Positions 4,798 through 27,621 are shown, counted from the stretch's first letter. The stretch: 32,000 bases of DNA from Candidatus Woesearchaeota archaeon (GCA_016203205.1 JACQNE010000014.1:1-32000), one strand, 5' to 3'. Made by a program: numbers and translations. Notes: generated from the sequence alone by a model not told the origin.

Positions 4798-6576
4798 ATG
4801 GGGTGGAAAGATGAGCCGGTCGTGTTTCTCACGCGAAAAACCTGGAAGTATTCTGGTGAGAACCAGCCAAAAATTGTTCTCTATGTTATTCTGTTTGTCA
4901 TTGCTAACGCCATCGACCTATTATGGCCGCTCCTGATCGCCAAGATCCTCAATTTTATTCAAGAAAACGGCGTTACAACGCAAAATATCCCTACGTTGAT
5001 CGGATATCTGTCATTTTTCCTAGTGCTCACCATCGGATTCTGGATTTTTCACGGCCCGGCCCGTGTCATTGAAAATAAAAATGCTTTTCTCGCCAAAGCA
5101 AATTACAAGAGATACCTGTTGGATGGAACGATGAGCCTTCCGGCAGAATGGCATACGGAACATCATTCCGGAGATACGATCGATAAAGTTGAAAAAGCGA
5201 CAACCGCGCTGTTTCAATTCTCCTCCGAATCATTCGAGGTTATCGAGACAATCGTCCGGTTTATCGGCTCGTATCTCGCTTTGGTTTATTTTAATCTTCA
5301 GGCAAGTTATCTTGTCCTGCTGATGGTCATCCTAACTATTTATATGATCCTCCGCTTTGACAAGATTCTGGTGAGGCAATATTCTGAACTCTATGAAGCG
5401 GAAAATGGCATCTCGGCAAAGATTTTTGATACGCTGAGCAACATCACCACGGTCATCATCTTACGCATTGAGAAATTGCTCTCTAACGTCATCTTTCGCA
5501 AGATGCTGCAGCCGTTCAAGCTTTTTCTGCGTAATAACAAGATCAATGAAGTAAAGTGGTTTCTGGTTTCGCTCTTCGCTTCGACGATGACAGCGTTGGT
5601 TTTGTTTACCTACATCTATTCCCAAGCTAAGGTAGAAGCGACAATTCTCATCGGAACCGTCTATGCTTTGTATGGATATTTATATAATATCAATACTCTC
5701 TTCTACCGCTTCGCGTATAAATATAGCGACATCATCAAGCAAAAAACGGCGGTTCTAAATGGAGAAAAGATCGCCCGGGAGTTCAAAGATCTGGAGAAAT
5801 TCAAGCCGAGGGCAGTATCGTCTGACTGGAAATCAATCGAAATTAAAGGCTTATCATTTTCCTATCACACAGAAGAAGGAGCTGATCTGCATCTGGAAAA
5901 TATTTCTTTTACGATCCGGCACGGGGAGAAGATCGCTTTTATTGGTGACAGCGGAAGCGGGAAGACGACACTCCTGAGGGTGATCCGTGATATCTACCAC
6001 CCCAAGTCCGGCAAAATTGTCTTGGATGGGAAAGAACTCCCAAAGGGGTTTAAGTACATCAGCACGATGATTTCCCTGATCCCTCAGGATCCAGAAATTT
6101 TTGCAACGACAATCAAAGAGAACATTACTTTTGGAGTGCGACATTCCCAAGAAGAAATAAAGAGATATACGGATATGGCCACATTCACCGAGGTTATCTC
6201 TCAATTGCCCCGCGGCGTGCAATCGTCTATCGTTGAAAAAGGAGTAAGTCTGAGCGGCGGACAAAAGCAGCGTCTTGCTCTCGCGCGAGGCCTGATGGCT
6301 TCGGAAGATAAAGAGATCATCTTATTAGACGAGCCGACGAGCAGTGTAGATGTCAAAAATGAATTGCTGATCTACCAGAATATCTTTAGACAGTTTAAAG
6401 AGAAGACGATCATTTCCTCAGTGCATCGGCTTCATCTCCTTACGCTCTTTGATACAATCTATTATTTTAAGAATGGAAAAATAATCCATTCCGGAACATT
6501 TGACCAATTATTACGAGAATCAGAGCCGTTTCGGATACTGTGGAAGAAATATACCAAGACAACGAGCAAGAGATGA
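4798..6576 (+). CDS. ABC transporter, fused permease/ATP-binding protein (exporter type)
   Basis: 592 aa with an N-terminal multi-TM domain. Motifs: Walker A GDSGSGKTT, signature LSGGQKQR, Walker B ILLDEPTS, H-loop SVHRL. Confidence 0.9.
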   Translation: MGWKDEPVVFLTRKTWKYSGENQPKIVLYVILFVIANAIDLLWPLLIAKILNFIQENGVTTQNIPTLIGYLSFFLVLTIGFWIFHGPARVIENKNAFLAKANYKRYLLDGTMSLPAEWHTEHHSGDTIDKVEKATTALFQFSSESFEVIETIVRFIGSYLALVYFNLQASYLVLLMVILTIYMILRFDKILVRQYSELYEAENGISAKIFDTLSNITTVIILRIEKLLSNVIFRKMLQPFKLFLRNNKINEVKWFLVSLFASTMTALVLFTYIYSQAKVEATILIGTVYALYGYLYNINTLFYRFAYKYSDIIKQKTAVLNGEKIAREFKDLEKFKPRAVSSDWKSIEIKGLSFSYHTEEGADLHLENISFTIRHGEKIAFIGDSGSGKTTLLRVIRDIYHPKSGKIVLDGKELPKGFKYISTMISLIPQDPEIFATTIKENITFGVRHSQEEIKRYTDMATFTEVISQLPRGVQSSIVEKGVSLSGGQKQRLALARGLMASEDKEIILLDEPTSSVDVKNELLIYQNIFRQFKEKTIISSVHRLHLLTLFDTIYYFKNGKIIHSGTFDQLLRESEPFRILWKKYTKTTSKR

Positions 6577-6580
6577 TGAG

Positions 6581-6723
6581 GTACGTATTTAGTTTGCCGC
6601 TCGCTCGGCGTTTTTCCACAATTTTCTCTGAAGTGAAAAAACTGTTTTCCCGAAGAAAAACGCTCCAACCTTGTCTTACGAAGAGATTCTCTCGCTCGCA
6701 TCTTAGCGAAACTAAATACGTAC
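6581..6723. repeat. 143-bp imperfect palindromic element with GTACGTATTTAGTTT termini (X1)
   Basis: Left arm GTACGTATTTAGTTTGC pairs with right arm GCGAAACTAAATACGTAC. There is an internal stem GCGTTTTTC/GAAAAACGC. The element starts 4 nt after the ABC transporter stop, between convergent genes. Confidence 0.6.
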
Positions 6724-6766
6724 ACAATGAGCTGGTTCTTGATCTCCTCCACGTATCTTGTCTGTT

Positions 6767-8524: not shown

Positions 8525-8730
8525 TTAAATGTTTATTGGTACGTATTGCGTTAAGTCTGTGCGGGCTTGGTCAAGATGGTCTGCCGAGCGCTGGCTTTGA
8601 GCCAGAAATTCAGAGTCTCGCTTATCTCTGAGCATAGTTCGGGAGAGAAGATGTTCTATTCTTTGGGCGAGACGAGGCAGACCGACCTGCCCAAGCACAG
8701 ACTTAATACGTATGGTTAAATGTTTATTGG
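8525..8730. repeat. 176-bp rod-like palindromic element (X2, 8540..8715) bracketed by a perfect 15-bp direct repeat TTAAATGTTTATTGG
   Basis: The direct repeats lie at 8525-8539 and 8716-8730. Nested arms are TACGTATT/AATACGTA, TTAAGTCTGTGC/GCACAGACTTAA, GGGC/GCCC, GGTCTGCC/GGCAGACC and GTCTCGC/GCGAGAC. Confidence 0.6.
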
Positions 8731-9719
8731 CTCTGGATCGCCGCTTTTTGGATCTCATCTTCATCTTCATGCTCATCGAGAATCTCTCCGACGATCTCTT
8801 CCAGAACGTCTTCTAAAGTTATGATGCCGACGATCTTATCTGATTTATTGAGGACAATGAAAATATGGACACGATTCTTTTTAAATAGATTTAAGACTTT
8901 ATCCAGCTTGTCCGCTTCCTGGATATAGAAGATTATCGGCCGCATAATCTCCCGGACAGTGAGCGGGAGGAGATATTCTTTACTGACCAGATCTTTAGTG
9001 AAAAAAATGCCGACCACTTTCTTTTCATGAGGATCATAGACGGGAATACGCGAACAGCCCTGCAGCTGAATCTCTACACGCAAAGAAGGAGTAAGACGCA
9101 TCGAAGGACGGAGGTGATAGGTATTCTTCCAGGGAGTCATCACCTGCCCAACATTTTTATCTGAAAAATGCAGGCCGCGCTGCAGCAGGGAAAATTCTTG
9201 CTCGCGGATATCCGATTTCTGAAATTTTTTCTGCTGTTCGATGAACAGAGAGAACTCTTTTTTGGTGAAGACTGCGGGAAGTTCTTTCCCCAGCATGCGA
9301 TCAAGGCCGTAGGCAATCGGCCAGGTAACTGGATAAAAGAGGTAAAAGAAAAATGAAACCAGCCAGGCAAAACGCGCGCCGAATTCTAGCGCGTGGCGGG
9401 AAAAGATCGCTTGGGGCAGGATCTCACCAAAGATGACAATCAATCCCGTAGCGGTAAGGCTGGCGATGATACCCTGAGTTAGCGAACCCAAAAAAACAGC
9501 AAGGGCAGAATTCACCGCGACATTTCCTAACAACAAAGTACACAGGAGCTGGTTTCCCCGCTTACGGAGAGGGTATACTTTCTGCGCATTTTTATTCCCC
9601 AGCTTTATTTTCCGTTGTAAGGCATAAGGTCCCAGGCTCATTAAGCCTAACGACAGGCCGGAAAATAACGCCGAAAGCCCGATCAAAAAAGTGATAATCA
9701 AGTAATTAAAGAGGACCAT
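8724..9719 (-). CDS. CNNM/CorC-type transporter (DUF21 membrane domain + CBS pair)
   Basis: 331 aa with N-terminal TM helices and the GEILPQ motif, followed by a CBS-pair region. The usual CorC_HlyC C-terminal domain is absent. Confidence 0.85.
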   Translation of the reverse strand: MVLFNYLIITFLIGLSALFSGLSLGLMSLGPYALQRKIKLGNKNAQKVYPLRKRGNQLLCTLLLGNVAVNSALAVFLGSLTQGIIASLTATGLIVIFGEILPQAIFSRHALEFGARFAWLVSFFFYLFYPVTWPIAYGLDRMLGKELPAVFTKKEFSLFIEQQKKFQKSDIREQEFSLLQRGLHFSDKNVGQVMTPWKNTYHLRPSMRLTPSLRVEIQLQGCSRIPVYDPHEKKVVGIFFTKDLVSKEYLLPLTVREIMRPIIFYIQEADKLDKVLNLFKKNRVHIFIVLNKSDKIVGIITLEDVLEEIVGEILDEHEDEDEIQKAAIQSQ

Positions 9720-9776
9720 GAGCTATTCAGTAAGATTGTATCAGGAGCAGCAGTTTATAAGATTTTGCCTAAAAAT

Positions 9777-9938
9777 TGCTTTGTAGAAAAAGTCGTCCTG
9801 GCCATTGACCGCGGCGAAAACCGGTTGTGTTGATGGTTGCGTACGAGTTATTCTCGTCGCTGGTTTTCGCACCTGTTCCTGCATATCGCTTCTCACGGTC
9901 AATCTTCAGGCCAGGCGGACGACTTTTTCTACAGAGCC
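9777..9938 (+). mobile_element. MITE-like non-autonomous element, copy A
   Basis: 162 bp. Its ends are (T)GCTTTGTAGAAAAAGTCGTCC ... GGACGACTTTTTCTACAGAGCC. It is homologous along its length to 13195..13357 (inverted) and 21172..21333. The 9-nt flanks CCTAAAAAT and ACTCAAAAG match at 6/9 positions. Confidence 0.75.
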
Positions 9939-9973
9939 ACTCAAAAGTACGTATCGTCTCCAGCCGCATAATC

Positions 9974-10010: not shown

Positions 10011-11432
10011 ATGACACGTTTGGGGTTGACTTTTGCAGATGTCCTTCTGGTACCAAAGCGAACGCCCCTCTCTTCTCGGACAGAAGCCACATTTAAGACT
10101 CATTTCACCAAAAATATTGTTCTGAACAATCCTTTAGTCAGCGCCAATATGGCTACGGTAACGGAGCATAAGATGGCCATTGCGCTAGCCCGGGAAGGGG
10201 GTTTGGGAATAATCCATCAATTTAGTACGATCGAAGAACAAGTTACCGAAATCAAGAGAGTGAAGCGGAGTACCAGTTATGTTATCGAAAATCCAATTTC
10301 GGTGCCGCCAACGATGACCATCGCTGACGCAGCACAGAAGATGAAAGAAGAAGAGGTCACCAGTCTTTTGGTTGTAGAAAGCGGAAAATTAGTGGGAATT
10401 TTTACCTCCCGCGATTATCTTTTTGAAATAGATTTAACGAAAAGAATCAGTGAGGTGATGACTCCCCAAGAAAAATTGATCAGCGCATCCCCTCAGATTC
10501 TGCTGGAAGAAGCGAAACAACTCCTGCATAAACACCGGATTGAGAAACTGCCTTTGGTGGAAAACAATGTTGTCAAAGGGTTGATCACGACAAAAGACAT
10601 CAAGAAATTAGAGCAGTGGCCAAACGCCGCACGCGATAGCAAAGGAAGATTGTTGGTTGGCGCAGCTGTCGGCGTGAAAGATACATTAGAACGCGCCAAA
10701 GCAGTTATCGAAGCCGGCGCAGATGTTTTAGTTTTGGACATTGCCCATTGCCATTCGGATTATGCTATTCAAAGACTAAAAGAACTTAAAACACATTTCT
10801 CCATTGACGTGATGGCGGGAAATATTGCCACGGGAGAAGCTGCACGTGATTTGATCGAGGCCGGTGCAGATGGGTTAAAAGTGGGGATCGGCCCTTCGCC
10901 GGTCTGTACGACGCGGATTATCGCCGGAGCTGGCGTACCACAGATAACGGCAATCATCGACGTGATGGAAGTTGCCCAGAAATATCATGTGCCGGTCTGT
11001 GCTGATGGCGGGATGAAGTTCCCTGGCGATGTGGCAAAAGCATTGGCTGCGGGCGCGAGTTCCATCTTCTCAGGATATCTTTTTGCGGGAACCGATGAAG
11101 CGCCGGGGATGGTCATCATGAAAGATGGCAAGCGTTATAAGAAATACATGGGCAGCGCATCATATGACAGCAGCCACGAGCGGCGTGAATTATCGCAGGG
11201 AAAACAAGTCAAAGAACGCTTAGATGTCTTTGTCGAAGGAGTTGCCATTCTTGTTGATTACAAAGGGCCAGTGCGTGATGTAATCAACAGCTTGCTGAAA
11301 GGCGTACAGAGCGGGATGAGCTACTGCGGCGCGCGGACGATCCAGGAAATGCAGGCTAATGCTGAATTTATCCAGATTACTTCTGCCGGCTGGGAAGAGA
11401 GCAAAGAGAGAGGACAGAAGCTGAGTGAGTGA
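10011..11432 (+). CDS. guaB: inosine-5'-monophosphate dehydrogenase with CBS pair
   Basis: The N-terminus [10 protein letters not shown] is typical of IMPDH. The catalytic loop reads [11 protein letters not shown] and a CBS pair is inserted. I prefer the ATG at 10011 to the GTG at 10005 used by the ORF track. Confidence 0.9.
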
Positions 11433-11785: not shown

Positions 11786-12430
11786 CTATTCCTTGTGTAC
11801 TTCTCGTTTGATCAATTCAATAATCTCCGGAAACTCGGTGATCTTAAAGTGTCCTTTGATATGGTTAAAAGTAATAATGTTTGCACTCTTTAATTTCCGA
11901 CGATATTTTTTCGCATGAGATACCGGAACAACATCATCATTTTTTGAAAATAATAATGTAAGATGCGGGGAATTTCTCTCCAGCAGGGATAAGTTTGATT
12001 TAAGCTTAAATCCGCCAGCGAGATCTTCATTGGGGAGGGTATCATCAAAAGGTGGTGCAATGAGAAAAGTAGAAAGAATCTTTTTGGGAAATTTATTCTC
12101 GGAGAGATATTTCGCCAGGAAAATTCCTCCCAAAGATATTCCAATGAGGATGATATTGTTTCTTAATAAAGGAAAATGCCTTTCAAAATGAATCTTCCAA
12201 TCGATGTATTTTGCATTGTCAGGAGAGGGCATATCTGGCGTTATGATCTGAAACTTCTGTCCTAATTTCTTCTTAAGATATTCATCGCGCCAGCGTATCT
12301 TCTCTTCAATGGATATCTTTCTGGTTTTTAAAAAGTGGAGGTAATCTTTCCTGCTCTTAAACGTCATCCCACCATGAATGATCATGATTTGAACTTTCTT
12401 CATGGTAGATTTAGATCCAAATTTAGGCAC
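11786..12430 (-). CDS. alpha/beta hydrolase (YdeN/RBBP9-like serine hydrolase)
   Basis: 214 aa with the nucleophile elbow GISLGG. Conserved Asp and His candidates lie further downstream (NDDVVP, KGHF). Confidence 0.75.
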   Translation of the reverse strand: MPKFGSKSTMKKVQIMIIHGGMTFKSRKDYLHFLKTRKISIEEKIRWRDEYLKKKLGQKFQIITPDMPSPDNAKYIDWKIHFERHFPLLRNNIILIGISLGGIFLAKYLSENKFPKKILSTFLIAPPFDDTLPNEDLAGGFKLKSNLSLLERNSPHLTLLFSKNDDVVPVSHAKKYRRKLKSANIITFNHIKGHFKITEFPEIIELIKREVHKE

Positions 12431-13151
12431 TCATTTTTCTTCGCGCCGAGAAGATCATCGTGATGAAACCGAACGCGGCGAGAAGATAAGCCGAACTATA
12501 GAGAAGGTTACGGAGGATGCCGGTGACATCGATTTCTAACCCCGCTGTTGAGGAAACATAAAGGATATCCGCAATCAGGATGCCGACACTGGTGATAAAG
12601 AGCATCAACAGGCTGTTTCGGAAATGTTCTATCTTGGAATAATATAAAGGGATGATCGAACCAAAAGTGATGATCAAACAGTCGGCGAGAGGATAGAAGA
12701 ACGAGACAAAAAGATGGCCTTGACCGGTTGTAAGTTTAGCCAGATCGCTCTGCAGAAGATACAAAAGCACGGCTCCGAAAAGAACGACTCCTCCCACGAC
12801 CATCGCAACTAATTTAGATGATTCTCGATGTGTCTTATGGCAAGTCCAGGCGAAGGCAAAAAATGACAAGATCAAAGTCACCGCACCTAACGTCCAATAG
12901 ACATCGGGCATGCTGGCCGGCGGGACTTCGCCGTAAACTGTGAAAATGAGATAGTACGTTAATTCACCTAACGCATATAAAGAGTAGCCGATCACTAAAG
13001 AGAAATAGATAAAGAAAGTTTTGTCTGTAAACAAATCTTTGATCTTATTCTTGAAGAGAGTGTTGAGCATGAACAGGCCGGAGACAGCCGTAAGAAGAGC
13101 GAAGGAAACGGTCGTGAGATAGAGAACATTGCTTACCTGCTCTAACACCAT
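12423..13151 (-). CDS. multi-pass membrane protein, unknown function
   Basis: The body of the protein is a run of hydrophobic helices. I place the start at MVLEQ (13151). The 52 upstream codons in the track ORF (to 13307) read through the MITE copy B, and a TATA-like TTTATATA lies about 28 nt upstream of 13151. Confidence 0.65.
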   Translation of the reverse strand: MVLEQVSNVLYLTTVSFALLTAVSGLFMLNTLFKNKIKDLFTDKTFFIYFSLVIGYSLYALGELTYYLIFTVYGEVPPASMPDVYWTLGAVTLILSFFAFAWTCHKTHRESSKLVAMVVGGVVLFGAVLLYLLQSDLAKLTTGQGHLFVSFFYPLADCLIITFGSIIPLYYSKIEHFRNSLLMLFITSVGILIADILYVSSTAGLEIDVTGILRNLLYSSAYLLAAFGFITMIFSARRKMSA

Positions 13152-13194
13152 ACTTTTAGAGAATATTTGGAGGTATATAAATGATTCGGAAATG

Positions 13195-13357
13195 GGCACT
13201 AGTAGAAAAAGTCGTCCGCTTGGCCGGAAGATTGACCGTGAGAAGCGATTTACAGGAACAGCTGCGAAAACCAGCGATGAGAATAGCTCGTACGCAACCA
13301 TCCACACAACCGGTTTTCGCCACGGTCAATGGCCAGGAGGACTTTTTCTCCAGAGCC
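13195..13357 (-). mobile_element. MITE-like non-autonomous element, copy B (inverted relative to A and C)
   Basis: By hand alignment it is the reverse complement of copy A, with about 11 mismatches over about 150 nt. GGAAAT hexamers sit on both flanks. Confidence 0.75.
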
Positions 13358-13417
13358 GGAAATCGCTGTTTTGCCAACGCCAGAAAATAATATAAATCAG
13401 AGAAATATTATCAACCG

Positions 13418-13846
13418 ATGGATTATGCAAAGAGCGGGGAAGACCACTGGGATCCAAAGCTGAACCCCTGGCGGGCACAGGCAGGGAGCGGTGTTGTGGC
13501 GATGGACTTTTCTGGATTCTATGTCCGGCCAGAGAGTCATACGCTCGGAAGAGACGAGGCACTGCGCTACGTCGATGCCCGGGCCGCGAGACAAATAGTT
13601 GCCGCAGAGACCGAACAGATCGCTCCAGAAGAAAAACCGCCGTATGCCGACCAGAACAAATTTGCTTTAATTCATCTTCAAGGACCACAACTGCCACTTC
13701 TGGATCGAAAGCCATTTCAGAGCCTGTACGAACTAGCCCGAAGACAGATGGACAGCCTTCCGACACGGCAAGATCGGCCGCCCCTGGATAACATCGAAAG
13801 AAGAATGGCTGAGAAATGGGAAAACAGGAGAGATTCGAGATCGTAA
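13418..13846 (+). CDS. hypothetical protein (G+C-rich ORF)
   Basis: 142-aa ORF with a charged, plausible composition. TAATATAAAT ends 20 nt upstream of the ATG. A longer ORF is open on the opposite strand, so strand assignment is uncertain. Confidence 0.4.
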   Translation: MDYAKSGEDHWDPKLNPWRAQAGSGVVAMDFSGFYVRPESHTLGRDEALRYVDARAARQIVAAETEQIAPEEKPPYADQNKFALIHLQGPQLPLLDRKPFQSLYELARRQMDSLPTRQDRPPLDNIERRMAEKWENRRDSRS

Positions 13847-13871
13847 AGTATTCTGACAAAATATACAACAA

Positions 13872-20489: not shown

Positions 20490-21203
20490 ATGCGTAAGCA
20501 AAGGCTGGGCGGGATCAAGGCCGTTGGCTTCGATTTTGATGGGACGCTGATCGTCTCCGAAGAGCAGAAAGCAAAAGCAATGGCCGAGATCTTCCGCGAA
20601 CAATTCGGCATCAAAAAAGGAGTGGAAAAAGCCTATGCCTCACTTGTCGGCTCAGCATCGAACCGCCACCAAAAAGTCAATAGTCTTTTTCAGAAGCTGC
20701 TCCATCGCACCCCTACGGTCCGTGAACGGCAATCCGTGGCGAGGGAATTTGGGAAGCATTACCAACGCCACATGAAGATGTGTCCATTGTTTCAGTGCAG
20801 CAATCTCATCAAAGAATTGCGTAAACAAGTCTCTTTTTTGTTTCTGCTTTCCTTGGAAAATAAAAAAGAAGTGACTGCCATCGCACAGCACTGCGGCGTG
20901 GCAAAGCATTTTGATGAGATTCTTGGCGGACCGAAACCGAAGGTAGAAAACTTGCTCCATATCATTAAGAAGCATAAACTAAAGCCCCATCAAGTCCTCT
21001 ACATCGGCGACGCACATTCCGATGTTATTGCCAGCAAGAAAATGAATGTGCGGGTCGTTCTTCTGGGTAAGAAGCACACATACGAACGGCTGAAAGAAGA
21101 CTTGGCAGCAGATTTTGTCTTTAGCTCTTTATGTGATGTGCCAAAAGTTTTTTCTACAATGATACTTGACCGGCTCCGTAGAAAAAGTCATCCTGGCCAT
21201 TGA
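20490..21203 (+). CDS. HAD-superfamily hydrolase (phosphatase-like), C-terminus rewritten by MITE insertion
   Basis: HAD motif I FDFDGTL and motif IV-like GDAHSDV are present. The last 10 codons and the stop (LRRKSHPGH*) lie inside MITE copy C. Confidence 0.8.
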   Translation: MRKQRLGGIKAVGFDFDGTLIVSEEQKAKAMAEIFREQFGIKKGVEKAYASLVGSASNRHQKVNSLFQKLLHRTPTVRERQSVAREFGKHYQRHMKMCPLFQCSNLIKELRKQVSFLFLLSLENKKEVTAIAQHCGVAKHFDEILGGPKPKVENLLHIIKKHKLKPHQVLYIGDAHSDVIASKKMNVRVVLLGKKHTYERLKEDLAADFVFSSLCDVPKVFSTMILDRLRRKSHPGH

Positions 21204-21333
21204 CCGTGGCGAAAACCGGCGCTGTTTCTGATTGCAGATGAGCTATTCCAGTCGCTGGTTTTCGCACCTGTTCCCGTAAATCGTTTCTCACGGTCAATCT
21301 TCAGGCCAAGCAGACGACTTTTTCTACAGAGCC
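21172..21333 (+). mobile_element. MITE-like non-autonomous element, copy C, with perfect 9-bp target-site duplication
   Basis: The ends are GGCTCCGTAGAAAAAGTCATCC ... AGACGACTTTTTCTACAGAGCC. TACTTGACC is present at 21163-21171 and again at 21334-21342. Confidence 0.85.
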
Positions 21334-21392
21334 TACTTGACCGTAATACATAAAAAGGAGAAATCCTTCCTTCCCTAAAAAGAGGTGTGAAC

Positions 21393-21533
21393 ATGGCACT
21401 ATGCAAATGCTTGATGTGCGGCAAGAATTCTTTCCATTATACCTATAAAGGAAAGTGTACCGGCTGTGGCGCCGGCGTGATGACCGCATCGCAAGCGAAA
21501 GCAAAGAAAGCGAAAATGAAAAAAAGGAGATAG
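21393..21533 (+). CDS. small zinc-ribbon protein (46 aa) with Lys-rich tail
   Basis: Translates as MALCKCLMCGKNSFHYTYKGKCTGCGAGVMTASQAKAKKAKMKKRR, with CxCxxC...CxxC. GAGGTG lies 6-7 nt upstream and a T-rich tract follows. It falls below the ORF-track length cut-off. Confidence 0.5.
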   Translation: MALCKCLMCGKNSFHYTYKGKCTGCGAGVMTASQAKAKKAKMKKRR

Positions 21534-22667: not shown

Positions 22668-25187
22668 ATGCTGGAAAGATTAGTCGAACGTTTTACAAGA
22701 AGAACATCCCGCCTATTTTTAGCGTTAGCTTTGACAGCGGGATGCCATTATGGGCCAAACCTCCCCTCTTCTGGCTATGCGGAAGGAGACACGACCCAAT
22801 TATACGATGCAACAAGTGATTCTACACAGGATGCATCTGCCGAGGACGGCCAATCGGACGACGGAATTGACACGGGGGGGAGAGGGTACAATGTTGTGAT
22901 CCCGTCTTCCCTCTTGGATATTCACATTCTTTCCCTTTTTGATACACAAGAAGATGACTCTGGAGAAACCAATGTTTCGCCAGGTTATGATCCAGAGAAT
23001 TGCCCCGACGGGAATAAAAATACCTGGTGTGCTGACCGGGATGGTGATGGCTTTGGCAACAAGAGCGAGAACAAATTCGATTGTTTTCCACCACCGGGTG
23101 AAGTTAAATATACAAAGAATTGCGGTGACTGTAACGATAAGAAAGAAATAAATAAGTTTGGTGTGTATGGCGCTGACGTGTATCCCGGCGCGGTGGAACT
23201 GTGCAACTTAGTCGATGATGATTGTGATGGCAAGACTGATGAGGATCTTCTTGAAAAATGCTCCACCGACTGCGGACCGGGCTACAACGAGTGCATTAGC
23301 GGCCAGTGGGTCTGCGATGCACCTCTGCCGACAGCAGAGATCTGTGATGGGTACGATAATGATTGCAATAACATTATTGACGACAGCTTTCCGATAACGG
23401 AAGAACAATGCGGCCCACAGGACGAAGAAGGCAATTATATTACAGTAGGAGTCTGCAAGCCCGGTGTTAGTGTAACTTATTGCGATTCCCTTGCCGGTAA
23501 GATGACTACCACTGCTTGTGATGCTTTTTTTCCGCAAGGGGAGATCTGCGATAATTACGACAATGATTGCGACGGCAAAACAGATGAAGATTTTATGGTT
23601 GGCGAACTTTGTTATGTTGGTATCGGCGAATGCGTCAATAAAGGGCAGTTTGAATGTCTATCTGACCTAGTGCAGGTGTACTGCGATGCGATGCCCAAAG
23701 ACTCCGGCGAAGAGATCTGCGATGGGAAAGACAATGATTGTGACGGGCAGACGGATGAATATGAAGATATTGCCCCTCAGCTGGAATCGATCGAAGAACT
23801 ATGCGCTTCGGCGTGCGGAAGTGGAGACTGGCTTTGCATCGACGGACAGATCTCTTGCAGTGCGCCTCTTCCGAAAGAAGAGATCTGCAACGGGTATGAC
23901 GATGATTGCGATAAAGTCATCGACAATGGATATAATGTCGGCCAGCCCTGCACCTTGGGAGCTGGCGCGTGTATGGACATCGGCGAGATGGTCTGCACGC
24001 CCAGTGGATTGAGCACGATCTGCAACGCCGCACCGGGGAAACCAGAACCAGAATCATGTGATGGCGTCGATAACGATTGTGATCTGTATATCGACGAACT
24101 CCCGGACATTCAGTTTCAGCTGGATCAGGTTTTTGCAGAAAACGGCATCTGCCAGACCGACTGCGGACCAGGCGAATATATTTGTTTCCAAGGGAGCATC
24201 GCGTGCAACGCTCCAGAACCCGGTATTGAAGTATGCAACGGCCTGGACGATGATTGTGACGGGCTGATAGACGAAGATTATGTGCAGATGGGCTTAGGAA
24301 AACCTTGCGAAGTAGGCATCGGAGCATGTTATGATAAAGGGAATTATGTCTGTACCAAAGATGGTAAAAGTATTGTCTGCAATGCCGTTGAAGGCCAGCC
24401 GCTGGAAGAGATGTGCAACGATCACGTCGATAATGACTGCGACGGCCTGGTTGATGAGGATTGCTGTGATGACGCCGAGCCGATCAAAGATATTGTTCCC
24501 TGTAAAGAACTTGTTCTTTATTTCAAGATAGATGATACGGGCAGTATGGCTGGGGCGATCTATCAAGCTGGTCAGCTTTCAAAGGAGATTGGCACAACTA
24601 TTTTCTCATCTGTTGATAAGGTCAATTTTGGATTAGGAACATTTAAAGACACAGAAGGAGAACAGATAGAGTATGGTCTTCTGCCTTATGACGAATGGAA
24701 AGTTATTGTTCAAAGTATTAAAGTAAGTGGAGGCGGTGACGCTCCTGAATCTTCTCTCAATTCGCTCTACGAGATGCTGGGACAGGATTGGGCTGACGCC
24801 GTGGGAGTTTCTGGACCTGATAAAGTAAGTATCTATGCCATCCATATGACTGATGCTGCCTGGCATAAAGATGGAGATGGGACCAGCTACTCGACGGGAT
24901 TAACGATTTCTGGTACTGCTCAAGAATTTGTTGCAGAAAAGATAAATTACATTGGGATTAGTTTTTCCAGTACCGATTATGGCCTTGCGGATATGGCTCT
25001 GTTTGAAAGCAAGTATCCAGAGGGTAGCAAACCAACTGCGTCGATGTATAAGTTTTACAACTCTTCTTCAACTTCAACTCTGGCGGGAATCGTTGCTGCG
25101 GAAATCATGGAGAACGAACCGCTGCAATCTTGGACGCAGTGTATCGATGGAAAATATGTACAGAAGAATGGCATCTGTGAGCAGTGA
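22668..25187 (+). CDS. secreted/lipobox-like cysteine-rich repeat protein with C-terminal vWA-like domain
   Basis: 839 aa with a signal-like N-terminus LFLALALTAGC. Eight C-x-x-x-D-[ND]-D-C-[DN]-x-x-x-D motifs are present. The C-terminal segment YFKIDDTGSMAG...HMTDAAWH resembles a vWA MIDAS. Confidence 0.85.
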   Translation: MLERLVERFTRRTSRLFLALALTAGCHYGPNLPSSGYAEGDTTQLYDATSDSTQDASAEDGQSDDGIDTGGRGYNVVIPSSLLDIHILSLFDTQEDDSGETNVSPGYDPENCPDGNKNTWCADRDGDGFGNKSENKFDCFPPPGEVKYTKNCGDCNDKKEINKFGVYGADVYPGAVELCNLVDDDCDGKTDEDLLEKCSTDCGPGYNECISGQWVCDAPLPTAEICDGYDNDCNNIIDDSFPITEEQCGPQDEEGNYITVGVCKPGVSVTYCDSLAGKMTTTACDAFFPQGEICDNYDNDCDGKTDEDFMVGELCYVGIGECVNKGQFECLSDLVQVYCDAMPKDSGEEICDGKDNDCDGQTDEYEDIAPQLESIEELCASACGSGDWLCIDGQISCSAPLPKEEICNGYDDDCDKVIDNGYNVGQPCTLGAGACMDIGEMVCTPSGLSTICNAAPGKPEPESCDGVDNDCDLYIDELPDIQFQLDQVFAENGICQTDCGPGEYICFQGSIACNAPEPGIEVCNGLDDDCDGLIDEDYVQMGLGKPCEVGIGACYDKGNYVCTKDGKSIVCNAVEGQPLEEMCNDHVDNDCDGLVDEDCCDDAEPIKDIVPCKELVLYFKIDDTGSMAGAIYQAGQLSKEIGTTIFSSVDKVNFGLGTFKDTEGEQIEYGLLPYDEWKVIVQSIKVSGGGDAPESSLNSLYEMLGQDWADAVGVSGPDKVSIYAIHMTDAAWHKDGDGTSYSTGLTISGTAQEFVAEKINYIGISFSSTDYGLADMALFESKYPEGSKPTASMYKFYNSSSTSTLAGIVAAEIMENEPLQSWTQCIDGKYVQKNGICEQ
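23028..24461 (+). repeat. in-frame coding repeats (Cys/Asp-rich modules, about 113-120-aa super-repeats)
   Basis: Super-repeat boundaries fall at about 23259, 23763 and 24102. Module A reads C(S/A/Q)(T/S)(D/A)CG(P/S)G...C...(P)LP...E(I/V)C. Module B reads G(E/Q/K)(L/P)C..G.G.C...G...C...........C. Each module ends in a DNDCD motif. Confidence 0.8.
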
Positions 25188-26334: not shown

Positions 26335-26973
26335 ATGGCAGAACGGGACGGTTGGTCGCAAAAAGGATTAGAACATTTTATTCAAAATCTAGCCCAAAAG
26401 TATCCCTCCGAAGCCGTTGCCGAAATCGCCTACTGTCCAACATGTAAAGAATACAGCGCTGCATTGGAAAGACATATGCCCGAACGGCATAAGAATGCTG
26501 GTTGGGTGGCCATGCTCTGGGAAAAAGCGAAGACAAAAAAAACTCTGGCCACAACCATCACCGATCCTGACTTTCTCGGAAAGCATACACCTTCATTGAT
26601 CGTTGTGTATCCTGAAATCCAAGGATATTCCCCAGAAGAATGTCTGTCCATCATCAAAGATCATGCATATGTCTATGCTCAGGATTGGTTTGACGGCATC
26701 CCCATCAACGCCACGCGGCGCATAACTGCAGAAGAAGGAGAGCATTTCTTGAGAAAGACAATTTATGGCATCCTGGAAGCACGAGCGTATCGGCATCAAT
26801 TAGCGGTCATGCCCGAGCACTTGAAGGAAGAAAGAATGGGGCGGACGGCAAAACAGAGATATCAAGAGCATCTTCGCGCGTTGGATCTGCTTTCATATTC
26901 AATATTAATGCCTCTGGAACGGGAGACGATCAAGCTGTTTCTGAAAGAAGTGGGGTACACTCCCCAGAAATGA
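26335..26973 (+). CDS. hypothetical protein, paralog 1 (CxxC...HxxxxH present, HExxH degenerate)
   Basis: 212 aa. It carries YCPTCKEYSAALERHMPERH. The position equivalent to the paralog's HExxH reads DHAYVYAQDW. The next gene starts 12 nt downstream. Confidence 0.7.
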   Translation: MAERDGWSQKGLEHFIQNLAQKYPSEAVAEIAYCPTCKEYSAALERHMPERHKNAGWVAMLWEKAKTKKTLATTITDPDFLGKHTPSLIVVYPEIQGYSPEECLSIIKDHAYVYAQDWFDGIPINATRRITAEEGEHFLRKTIYGILEARAYRHQLAVMPEHLKEERMGRTAKQRYQEHLRALDLLSYSILMPLERETIKLFLKEVGYTPQK

Positions 26974-26985
26974 GGGCAAGTCAAC

Positions 26986-27621
26986 ATGGTCTCAGAGAGA
27001 TATTGGACCGATCATTCGCTGGAAGAATATCTTGGTTCATTTCTAGAAGAACATCCCCACGCGGCAGTTTCAGAGATAGTCTATTGTCCGACAGAAAAAC
27101 GATTCCAACAAGTATTGAAAAAATCTTTTCCACAGCATGTGTGGAGCCCGCAAAAAGTAGGCTTACTCTGGTTTAGAATGCAATTTGCCGAGACGGCGAT
27201 GTCGGTAATGTACGATATAAACCGGCTGGGTACGAGTATTCCCGCGGTCATCGTGGGGTATCCACCAACTCTCTTAGTGCAGGAAGATGAACTTGTCTCG
27301 ATCATCCGAGATCATGAATATGTCCATGCCTCAGATTGGAGCGCTGGGATCCCAATCAATTCTCAATATCGGATCACAACCCAAAATAAAGATCAATTAA
27401 TTTTAGATACGATTAACGCGATCATGGAAGTACGTGCATATGAGCATCAGTTGGAAGCCATGCCTCTGGAATGGAAAGAACGATCTATTTTTGACACGAT
27501 ATCTTCCAACCATTCTCGGCATTATCAGTTTTTGAGAAGCCGCCTTGCCGCTGAAGATTCATCACCTTCGGAAAAAAATATTATTCAGGATTTCTTAAGA
27601 GCGCTCAATTTCTCTCCATAA
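26986..27621 (+). CDS. hypothetical HExxH protein, paralog 2
   Basis: 211 aa, colinear with 26335..26973 at roughly 30% identity by eye. It carries DHEYVHASDW (HExxH), but the CxxC position is degenerate (YCPTEKRF). Confidence 0.7.
   Translation: MVSERYWTDHSLEEYLGSFLEEHPHAAVSEIVYCPTEKRFQQVLKKSFPQHVWSPQKVGLLWFRMQFAETAMSVMYDINRLGTSIPAVIVGYPPTLLVQEDELVSIIRDHEYVHASDWSAGIPINSQYRITTQNKDQLILDTINAIMEVRAYEHQLEAMPLEWKERSIFDTISSNHSRHYQFLRSRLAAEDSSPSEKNIIQDFLRALNFSP

Follow-up and report, generated by a model that had tools for sequence, protein, structure and literature searches.

Archaeal MITEs have been reported from Sulfolobus, Halobacterium, Haloquadratum and others, and the review that covers them also describes QMITE2 of Coxiella burnetii, which combines 7–9-bp direct repeats with 23–29-bp terminal inverted repeats (TIRs), a 113–145-bp core and a very stable full-length hairpin (PMC10969869). 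The repeat family described here, found in a 32,000-nt stretch of DNA that was analysed as a whole (the window), has almost the same architecture as QMITE2, but the two are unrelated in sequence, QMITE2 has a bacterial host, and TATA-proximal placement has not been reported for it. An automated census of MITEs in 8,220 archaeal genomes (NAR 2024, PMC11602168) lists in its main text 'a Woesearchaea genome' among the most MITE-dense archaea, with 105 per Mb. Set beside that figure from the main text, the three copies in 32 kb of the window correspond to ∼94 per Mb, and several families coexist in related loci. The window family may already be catalogued in bulk by the census, in whose main text we found no account of the anatomy, empty sites or promoter placement of Woesearchaeal MITEs; apart from what that text provides, nothing specific was found in the literature on Woesearchaeota transposons. 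The original prediction had not recognised the sequence as any named element, and this still stands, with no match in Rfam and with the 16-nt terminus, in either orientation, absent from the literature searched. DPANN archaea have very small, compact genomes, and to our knowledge their mobile elements have been little studied.

The host is a tiny groundwater archaeon of the Woesearchaeota (DPANN). The window carries housekeeping genes, among them those for GlyRS, an Lrp-type regulator, an ABC exporter, the RFC large subunit, a CNNM/CBS protein, IMPDH, ValRS and a HAD hydrolase, and it can be recognised as archaeal because of the archaeal RFC large subunit and the archaeal-type GlyRS, together with Lrp regulators. 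No identical protein is on record for the IMPDH; in a homology search, its best relatives were 92% and 91% identical and included proteins named Candidatus Woesearchaeota archaeon. The G+C content of the window is ∼44%, and no tRNA or tmRNA genes were found in it.

Exactly three copies of a 162–163-nt sequence are present in the window, two direct and one inverted. Copy A (9777–9938, plus strand, 162 nt) lies between the divergent CNNM/CBS and IMPDH genes; copy B (13195–13357, minus strand, 163 nt), inverted relative to the other two, lies between a gene for a 242-residue protein and an ORF of 142 codons; and copy C (21172–21333, plus strand, 162 nt) is inserted in the 3′ end of the gene for a HAD-family hydrolase. 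Probes of 25 nt from the interior and 22 nt from the end each matched only these three sites and gave no matches in 100 shuffles of the window, so that the number, positions and orientations originally predicted are borne out. The TIRs are 21–22 nt long (consensus GGCTCTGTAGAAAAAGTCSTCC), in agreement with the predicted length of ∼22 bp, and are 95% complementary over 21 nt in copy A and 90% over 21 nt in copy C. In copy A the left TIR, TGCTTTGTAGAAAAAGTCGTCC (9777–9798, plus strand), has two mismatches against the right-end sequence, and the right TIR is GGACGACTTTTTCTACAGAGCC (9917–9938, plus strand). Inside the TIRs, as had been described, nested inverted repeats ATTGACCG/CGGTCAAT and GCGAAAACCGG/CTGGTTTTCGC flank a variable core. 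The differences between copies are somewhat greater than the hand counts of the original prediction. Over their full length, copies A and B differ by 16 mismatches rather than about 11, and by a single 1-nt indel close to the right end, a slight departure from the claimed absence of indels; they are 92% complementary over the 155-nt ungapped core. Copies A and C differ by 23 mismatches rather than about 20, although the 12 assigned to the variable core were counted correctly. The sequence has no coding capacity of its own, and the ORFs overlapping it in the window are in a different frame and position at each of the three copies.

Each copy has altered its gene neighbourhood. Copy A pushes apart the divergent promoters of the CNNM/CBS gene on its left (8724–9719, minus strand) and the IMPDH gene on its right (10011–11432, plus strand). 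Copy B likewise separates a pair of divergent promoters; beside its right end is the 242-residue gene (12423–13151, minus strand, ATG at 13151), and the mechanically called ORF at 12423–13307 appears to be ∼52 codons too long, its 5′ end running into copy B. Also beside copy B is the 142-codon ORF (13418–13846, plus strand), which has no Pfam match. The HAD-family hydrolase gene (20490–21203, plus strand) carries copy C near its stop codon, the element having inserted two codons upstream of the stop. The C-terminus now reads ...DRLRRKSHPGH* (237 residues), and excising copy C with one duplication gives ...DRNT* (230 residues). Downstream of copy C is a Cys-rich ORF of 46 codons (21393–21533, plus strand).

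Several further features of the window were observed in comparison with its closest relative. A stretch of ∼500 nt (13358–13865) that adjoins copy B and holds the 142-codon ORF has no counterpart in the closest syntenic relative (L066), whose flanking genes are separated by only 108 nt. An 839-residue protein (22668–25187) consists of multiple Cys-rich, MopE-like 'putative metal-binding' repeats, which correspond to a 51-nt DNA repeat family (D1), together with a VWA domain; its gene, the HAD gene and copy C share a ∼4.9-kb block that is missing from the closest relative. Two adjacent paralogous ORFs of ∼211 codons without Pfam match (26335–26973 and 26986–27621) are represented there by a single 211-codon gene. 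Finally, a pair of 38-nt imperfect inverted repeats, 71% complementary and spanning 189 nt (6558–6746), lies between the ABC exporter gene and a 178-codon ORF that the closest relative lacks; this pair may be another small repeat element.

The repeat recurs well beyond the window. With one genome searched per species, an internal probe of 20 bases gave 13 loci, 10 of them in the metagenome-assembled genome (MAG) Candidatus Woesearchaeota archaeon RIFCSPLOWO2_01_FULL_44_20; the remaining 3 of 13, in Prevotella, Sunxiuqinia and a Pseudonocardiaceae MAG, are chance matches at which the element is absent. A gapped probe matching either arm, scanned against metagenomes, gave 46 loci. The element is present in 41 of these, all from three JGI metagenomes of Rifle aquifer samples (Ga0209541, Ga0209542 and C687J35174), and the other five are unrelated contigs with chance matches and no element. 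Neither of the two collections includes the contig of the window itself. Once duplicate contexts were collapsed, the Woesearchaeota MAG and related metagenome contigs provided 25 more distinct full-length insertions, in line with the expectation of further copies elsewhere, and gave, with the three in the window, a set of 28. A viral origin was considered and rejected: the internal probe had no matches in viral contigs, and the six matches of the end probe were all single chance matches, in unrelated sequence and without an inverted partner. Pairwise identity among the 28 copies ranges from 73% to 100% with a median of 82%, and the TIRs are kept in all of them. Conservation is ∼92% in the asymmetric right arm (for example CACCTGTTCC and ATCGCTTCTCACGGTCAATCTT), where 24 of 54 columns are invariant, and 76% in the core. 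The search patterns demanded parts of the left or right arm, and the conservation of those stretches is therefore partly an artefact; conservation of the non-terminal arms could nevertheless reflect binding of a transposase or host factor, or some other function.

Flanking duplications were scored in all 28 insertions with strict fixed boundaries, nine bases on each side. All nine positions match in 10 of the 28, eight in three and seven in four, the chance of at least 8/9 matching at any one site being ∼2.6e-4, and the duplicated sequences differ between sites. As claimed for the window, the duplication is perfect at copy C (TACTTGACC at both 21163–21171 and 21334–21342) and decayed at copy A, where the left CCTAAAAAT (9768–9776) and the right ACTCAAAAG (9939–9947) agree at 6 of 9 positions; at copy B, which the original prediction did not score, it is 8/9 (CGATTTCCG versus CCATTTCCG) once the boundary is shifted by 1 nt. 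Within the duplicated 9-mers, A or T is found almost without exception at positions 3 and 7. One duplicated 9-mer, CAATACACC, is identical at two insertions (L008 1052–1213, which is the same as L032 7970–8131, and L047 9511–9673) that are independent, since both core subtypes and outer flanks differ. Such sharing is unlikely by chance (∼0.001 over all pairs), which suggests some target-sequence preference.

Empty orthologous sites were also found, as the MITE reading had anticipated. Copy A is absent from three syntenic relatives. The closest (L066/L067, GCA_016181265.1) has an IMPDH that is 92% identical and the same gene order, and its alignment gap at copy A is exactly 171 nt, that is, 162 + 9. 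The more distant relatives L070 and L072/L073 also lack copy A, and the empty site in L070 reads ACATAAAAA where the window has the two decayed copies of the duplication. No copy of the element was found anywhere in the loci of these three relatives. The empty site for copy B is not clean, as it borders the ∼500-nt indel that holds the 142-codon ORF; for copy C, the closest relative lacks the entire region, and in the others the C-terminus of the HAD protein has diverged too far for comparison. Two insertions elsewhere (L047 and L050) are identical apart from a single-base gap and lie at different sites with different perfect duplications, which points to recent movement.

These repeats are short and non-coding, bear TIRs and site-specific 9-bp duplications, are dispersed, and have empty sites. 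We also observed directly the insertion of one family member next to another, deletion derivatives, and sister families with shared ends. We therefore conclude that the three repeats very probably represent a non-autonomous DNA transposon, a MITE, in the chromosome of a Woesearchaeote. The original MITE call is thus upheld by the further copies, the 9-bp duplications, the empty sites and a lack of covariation that is described below. We propose that a DDE-type transposase encoded elsewhere would bind the 21–22-bp TIRs, probably together with the conserved subterminal arms, and that it would insert the element through cuts staggered by 9 bp, gap repair then yielding the 9-bp direct duplication.

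No transposase domain was detected by Pfam or NCBIfam in the window ORFs scanned, in accordance with the original prediction. The longer IS with the same TIRs that had been suggested was found neither in the window nor in ∼400 kb of related loci: a longer parent element would be bounded by inverted GGCTCTGNAGAAAAAGTC ends, and the related loci contained no distant inverted pairs of ends and, among 782 ORFs of at least 120 codons, no multi-copy transposase-like ORF. The solo ends that were followed up belong to small decayed or variant elements. Because neither a transposase nor a longer partner was found in these sequences, we regard the element as non-autonomous, and mobilisation would accordingly occur in trans. 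The kind of transposase, and a choice between cut-and-paste and copy-out movement, are matters that we infer only. IS1-family elements, as described in ISfinder, have ends of the form GGnnnTG, 8–9-bp duplications and a preference for AT-rich targets. The element ends, GGCTCTG, fit this pattern, the duplication is 9 bp and the flanks are AT-rich and TATA-like, so that the GGCTCTG end and the 9-bp duplication may be a lead towards IS1, although such features are weak and not unique to that family, a derivative of which would be mobilised by an InsAB′-like DDE transposase from an element with matching ends. The ends of IS1595/ISH4-type and ISL3-type elements, which are GCTCTT-like and accompany 8-bp duplications, are superficially similar to the element ends too.

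The position of the insertions relative to promoters is less ordinary and had not been expected. Reading outward, both flanks are A-rich at +12 to +13 and then show a TTTATAAA-like sequence at ∼+16 to +23. In 17 of 28 copies a TATA-like motif is first encountered 14–18 nt past the right end, and in 5 of 28 at that distance past the left end, a very large excess over the baseline of 3.7% of non-ORF positions in the same loci, which is itself probably an underestimate for true intergenic DNA. The orientation bias (17 right ends versus 5 left ends facing TATA at 14–18 nt) has a p value of 0.017. In 11 copies the ATG of a sizeable ORF is 45–49 nt from the right end, and in 10 of those 11 the spacing from TATA to ATG is 28–33 nt, which is the geometry of a leaderless archaeal promoter. 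This spacing places the duplicated 9-mer directly against the BRE/TATA of the promoter. In tandem gene pairs there are usually 13–370 nt of spare spacer to the left of the element, yet the element lies against the promoter. In the window, the TATA-like box TTATAAA of the CNNM/CBS gene (9754–9761, minus strand) starts 17 nt outside copy A, at the canonical distance from its left end, and is conserved in the empty-site relatives; the TATA box TTTATATA (13173–13180, minus strand) starts 14–15 nt past the right end of copy B and ∼30 nt before the ATG at 13151; and a TATA-like ACATAAAAAGG begins 17 nt past copy C, upstream of the 46-codon ORF. Insertion or retention is strongly biased to a position 5–9 bp upstream of an archaeal TATA box, with the right end usually facing the promoter.

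Co-resident repeats show a similar placement to varying degrees. A sister family of ∼152 nt with related ends (GGCTCTGTCAAAAATCTCCAAAAAGTCAGCC...), a different interior and 9-bp duplications is absent from the window and present in related loci (L011 5974–6125, L026 8020–8171, L051 7015–7166, L058 3766–3916 and L013 3194–3345); its members lie ∼14–17 nt from TATA boxes, with the same placement in 5 of 6 copies, and the insertion in L011 lies 6 bp from a member of the window family. A 91-nt deletion derivative (L034 7260–7350) and a ∼230-nt shell carrying a nested foreign element (L035) have the same ends as the window family. A palindromic family with GGCACAATCC ends, one insertion of which shows a 9-bp duplication, ends ∼14–15 nt from TATA in roughly 9 of 16 contexts. 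By comparison, a ∼156-nt family with 8-bp duplications and unrelated ends has the TATA placement in only 2–3 of 9 copies. Presence of the placement in families with 9-bp duplications and its weakness in the 8-bp family favours an insertion preference tied to the type of transposase.

The ∼156-nt family (L035 1207–1362, L028 6770–6925, L060 782–937, L044 1611–1766, L041 1374–1529 and others) has perfect 13-nt ends, GTATTTGTTTAGC, and mostly 8-bp target duplications. Two other kinds of repeat were noted in the related loci. An element of ∼93 nt consists of two adjacent hairpins, TAGTAACTGTGAA...TTCACAGTTACTA and TAGTAAATGTGT...ACACATTTACTA, and is inserted at TATA sequences inside other MITEs; it occurs within a copy of the window family (L063 348–440), within family-2 copies (L027 9508–9601 and L028 7961–8054) and at L045 1743–1836, and may represent either a MITE that targets TA or a palindromic element of IS200/IS605 type. 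A 22-nt motif, ATCACTCA-N6-GGATTGTGCC, recurs in many contexts, often as inverted pairs ∼106 nt apart (L012 3599/3705, L029 5303/5409, L055 269/375 and L064 1495/1601) and also as many singles. The pair in L012 has a 9-bp duplication, CGTAATCGG, and a TATA box usually begins 14–15 nt past the motif, which may be a transposon end only or a promoter-upstream signal as well. Three copies of the window family sit exactly in the 14-nt gap between a GGCACAATCC-ended repeat or the 22-nt motif and TATA.

One way to account for the placement is that the transposase of the window family, and that of at least one co-resident family with 9-bp duplications, picks its targets by reading the archaeal promoter, inserting 5–9 bp upstream of TATA in a preferred orientation. 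We put this forward tentatively, as a possibility with the odds still against it. Such reading might proceed via DNA bent or bound by TBP/TFB, or via the BRE/TATA sequence itself. We infer targeting from the positions of surviving copies only, and selection after insertion in a very compact genome may instead be the source of the placement.

Tight placement at promoters is not a usual property of MITEs, and it leaves room for a selected role. The repeats might then be MITEs in origin that have been retained or spread because they serve the promoter, as a putative insulator or bidirectional terminator or as a platform for a DNA-binding protein. The fixed position relative to TATA and ATG would suit such a role, as would the orientation bias (17 right versus 5 left, p=0.017), the location against the promoter despite the 13–370 nt of spare spacer on the left, and the strong conservation of the non-terminal arms; moreover, the ends read GACTTTTTCTAC outward, so that a T5 tract follows the hairpin on both strands. 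However, close relatives manage the same promoters without copy A, and both the decay of the duplications and the free variation of the core are what neutral insertions would show. Furthermore, the GGCACAATCC-type family, with different ends and a 9-bp duplication at one insertion, lies at an equal distance from TATA, an observation that a common insertion preference explains at least as well as a common function does. On this evidence we consider a promoter role improbable.

A structured RNA is less probable still. Either strand of copy A is predicted to form a single long, imperfect hairpin (−75.6 and −73.5 kcal/mol) and folds far better than shuffled sequences (z=−7.0 and −8.2 for the two strands), and many copies lie just upstream of genes, which might suggest that the repeats are genes for a structured non-coding RNA, either an sRNA or a cis-regulatory leader, with the hairpin under selection. 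This alternative to the MITE call was rejected. Rfam 15 gave no matches at the gathering score for the whole window and none for copy A even at E≤1, and neither strand folds better than the other, as a DNA palindrome would predict. RNAalifold, applied to the 28-copy alignment, gave a covariation term of only −0.21 kcal/mol, and pairs changed on both sides number 6 compared with 4.9 expected, a value reached in 146 of 500 shuffles; hence double changes are not above shuffles, and there is no meaningful compensatory covariation. Most stem pairs are invariant and the variable ones mostly break: the four outermost variable pairs are unpaired in 10–17 of the 28 copies, extending to the whole alignment the claim, made from the window alone, that substitutions in the terminal stem are not compensatory. 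A single pair, in the core, has many double changes; these follow the division into two core subtypes and are likely a lineage effect. Moreover, the position of the copies, upstream of the TATA box, keeps them out of the leader transcribed with the neighbouring gene, copy C is inside a coding region, and the copies carry target duplications and have empty sites. We accordingly give the RNA reading very little credence.

Equally hard to sustain is the view that these are REP/ERIC-like palindromic repeats spread by recombination or by a REP-associated tyrosine transposase rather than by a DDE-type enzyme. The repeats are indeed intergenic, palindromic, of similar size and numerous in a genome. 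However, direct duplications of fixed length are a signature of staggered-cut transposition and are unexpected for REP-type elements, and here they are 9 bp long and of varied sequence; the TIRs are defined, and the gap at the empty site has the length of the element plus 9 bp. The anatomy likewise led us to reject integron attC sites and CRISPR repeats, the copies being dispersed, in mixed orientation, 3–8 kb apart and each with its own 9-bp duplication.

We thus return to a DNA transposon, and the family is a genuine MITE family; the basic call is an ordinary one, and it is the promoter-hugging position that is noteworthy. Together with its sister families, it shows that the MITEs of these genomes are diverse and active, with roughly 100 copies in each Mb. 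Repeats of this kind interrupt metagenome assemblies and lead to spuriously extended ORFs, as in the ORF at 12423–13307 and the HAD C-terminus, and their annotation improves gene calls. The near-fixed promoter position is a testable hint of promoter-directed insertion in archaea, and is relevant to the question of how transposons locate safe sites and how archaeal promoters tolerate disruption upstream. If promoter reading proves true, it would offer tiny DPANN genomes a route to tolerate ∼100 MITEs per Mb without gene loss.

In comparison with known systems, the window family resembles prokaryotic MITEs generally in being small and non-coding, with TIRs, short duplications, dispersed and mostly intergenic copies and a long hairpin, and in its clustering with, or insertion beside, other small repeats. 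It differs from them in its DPANN host and in its fixed distance upstream of an archaeal TATA box. In this last respect the nearest parallels are eukaryotic. Yeast Ty3 inserts at Pol III start sites and rice mPing upstream of genes, through demonstrated tethering or preference; the insertions described here similarly occupy a defined position at the core promoter rather than a motif within the duplicated target, although targeting has been demonstrated for the eukaryotic elements whereas here it is deduced from the copies that survive. A promoter-reading transposase, if confirmed, would be an archaeal counterpart of the promoter-tethered integration of Ty3.
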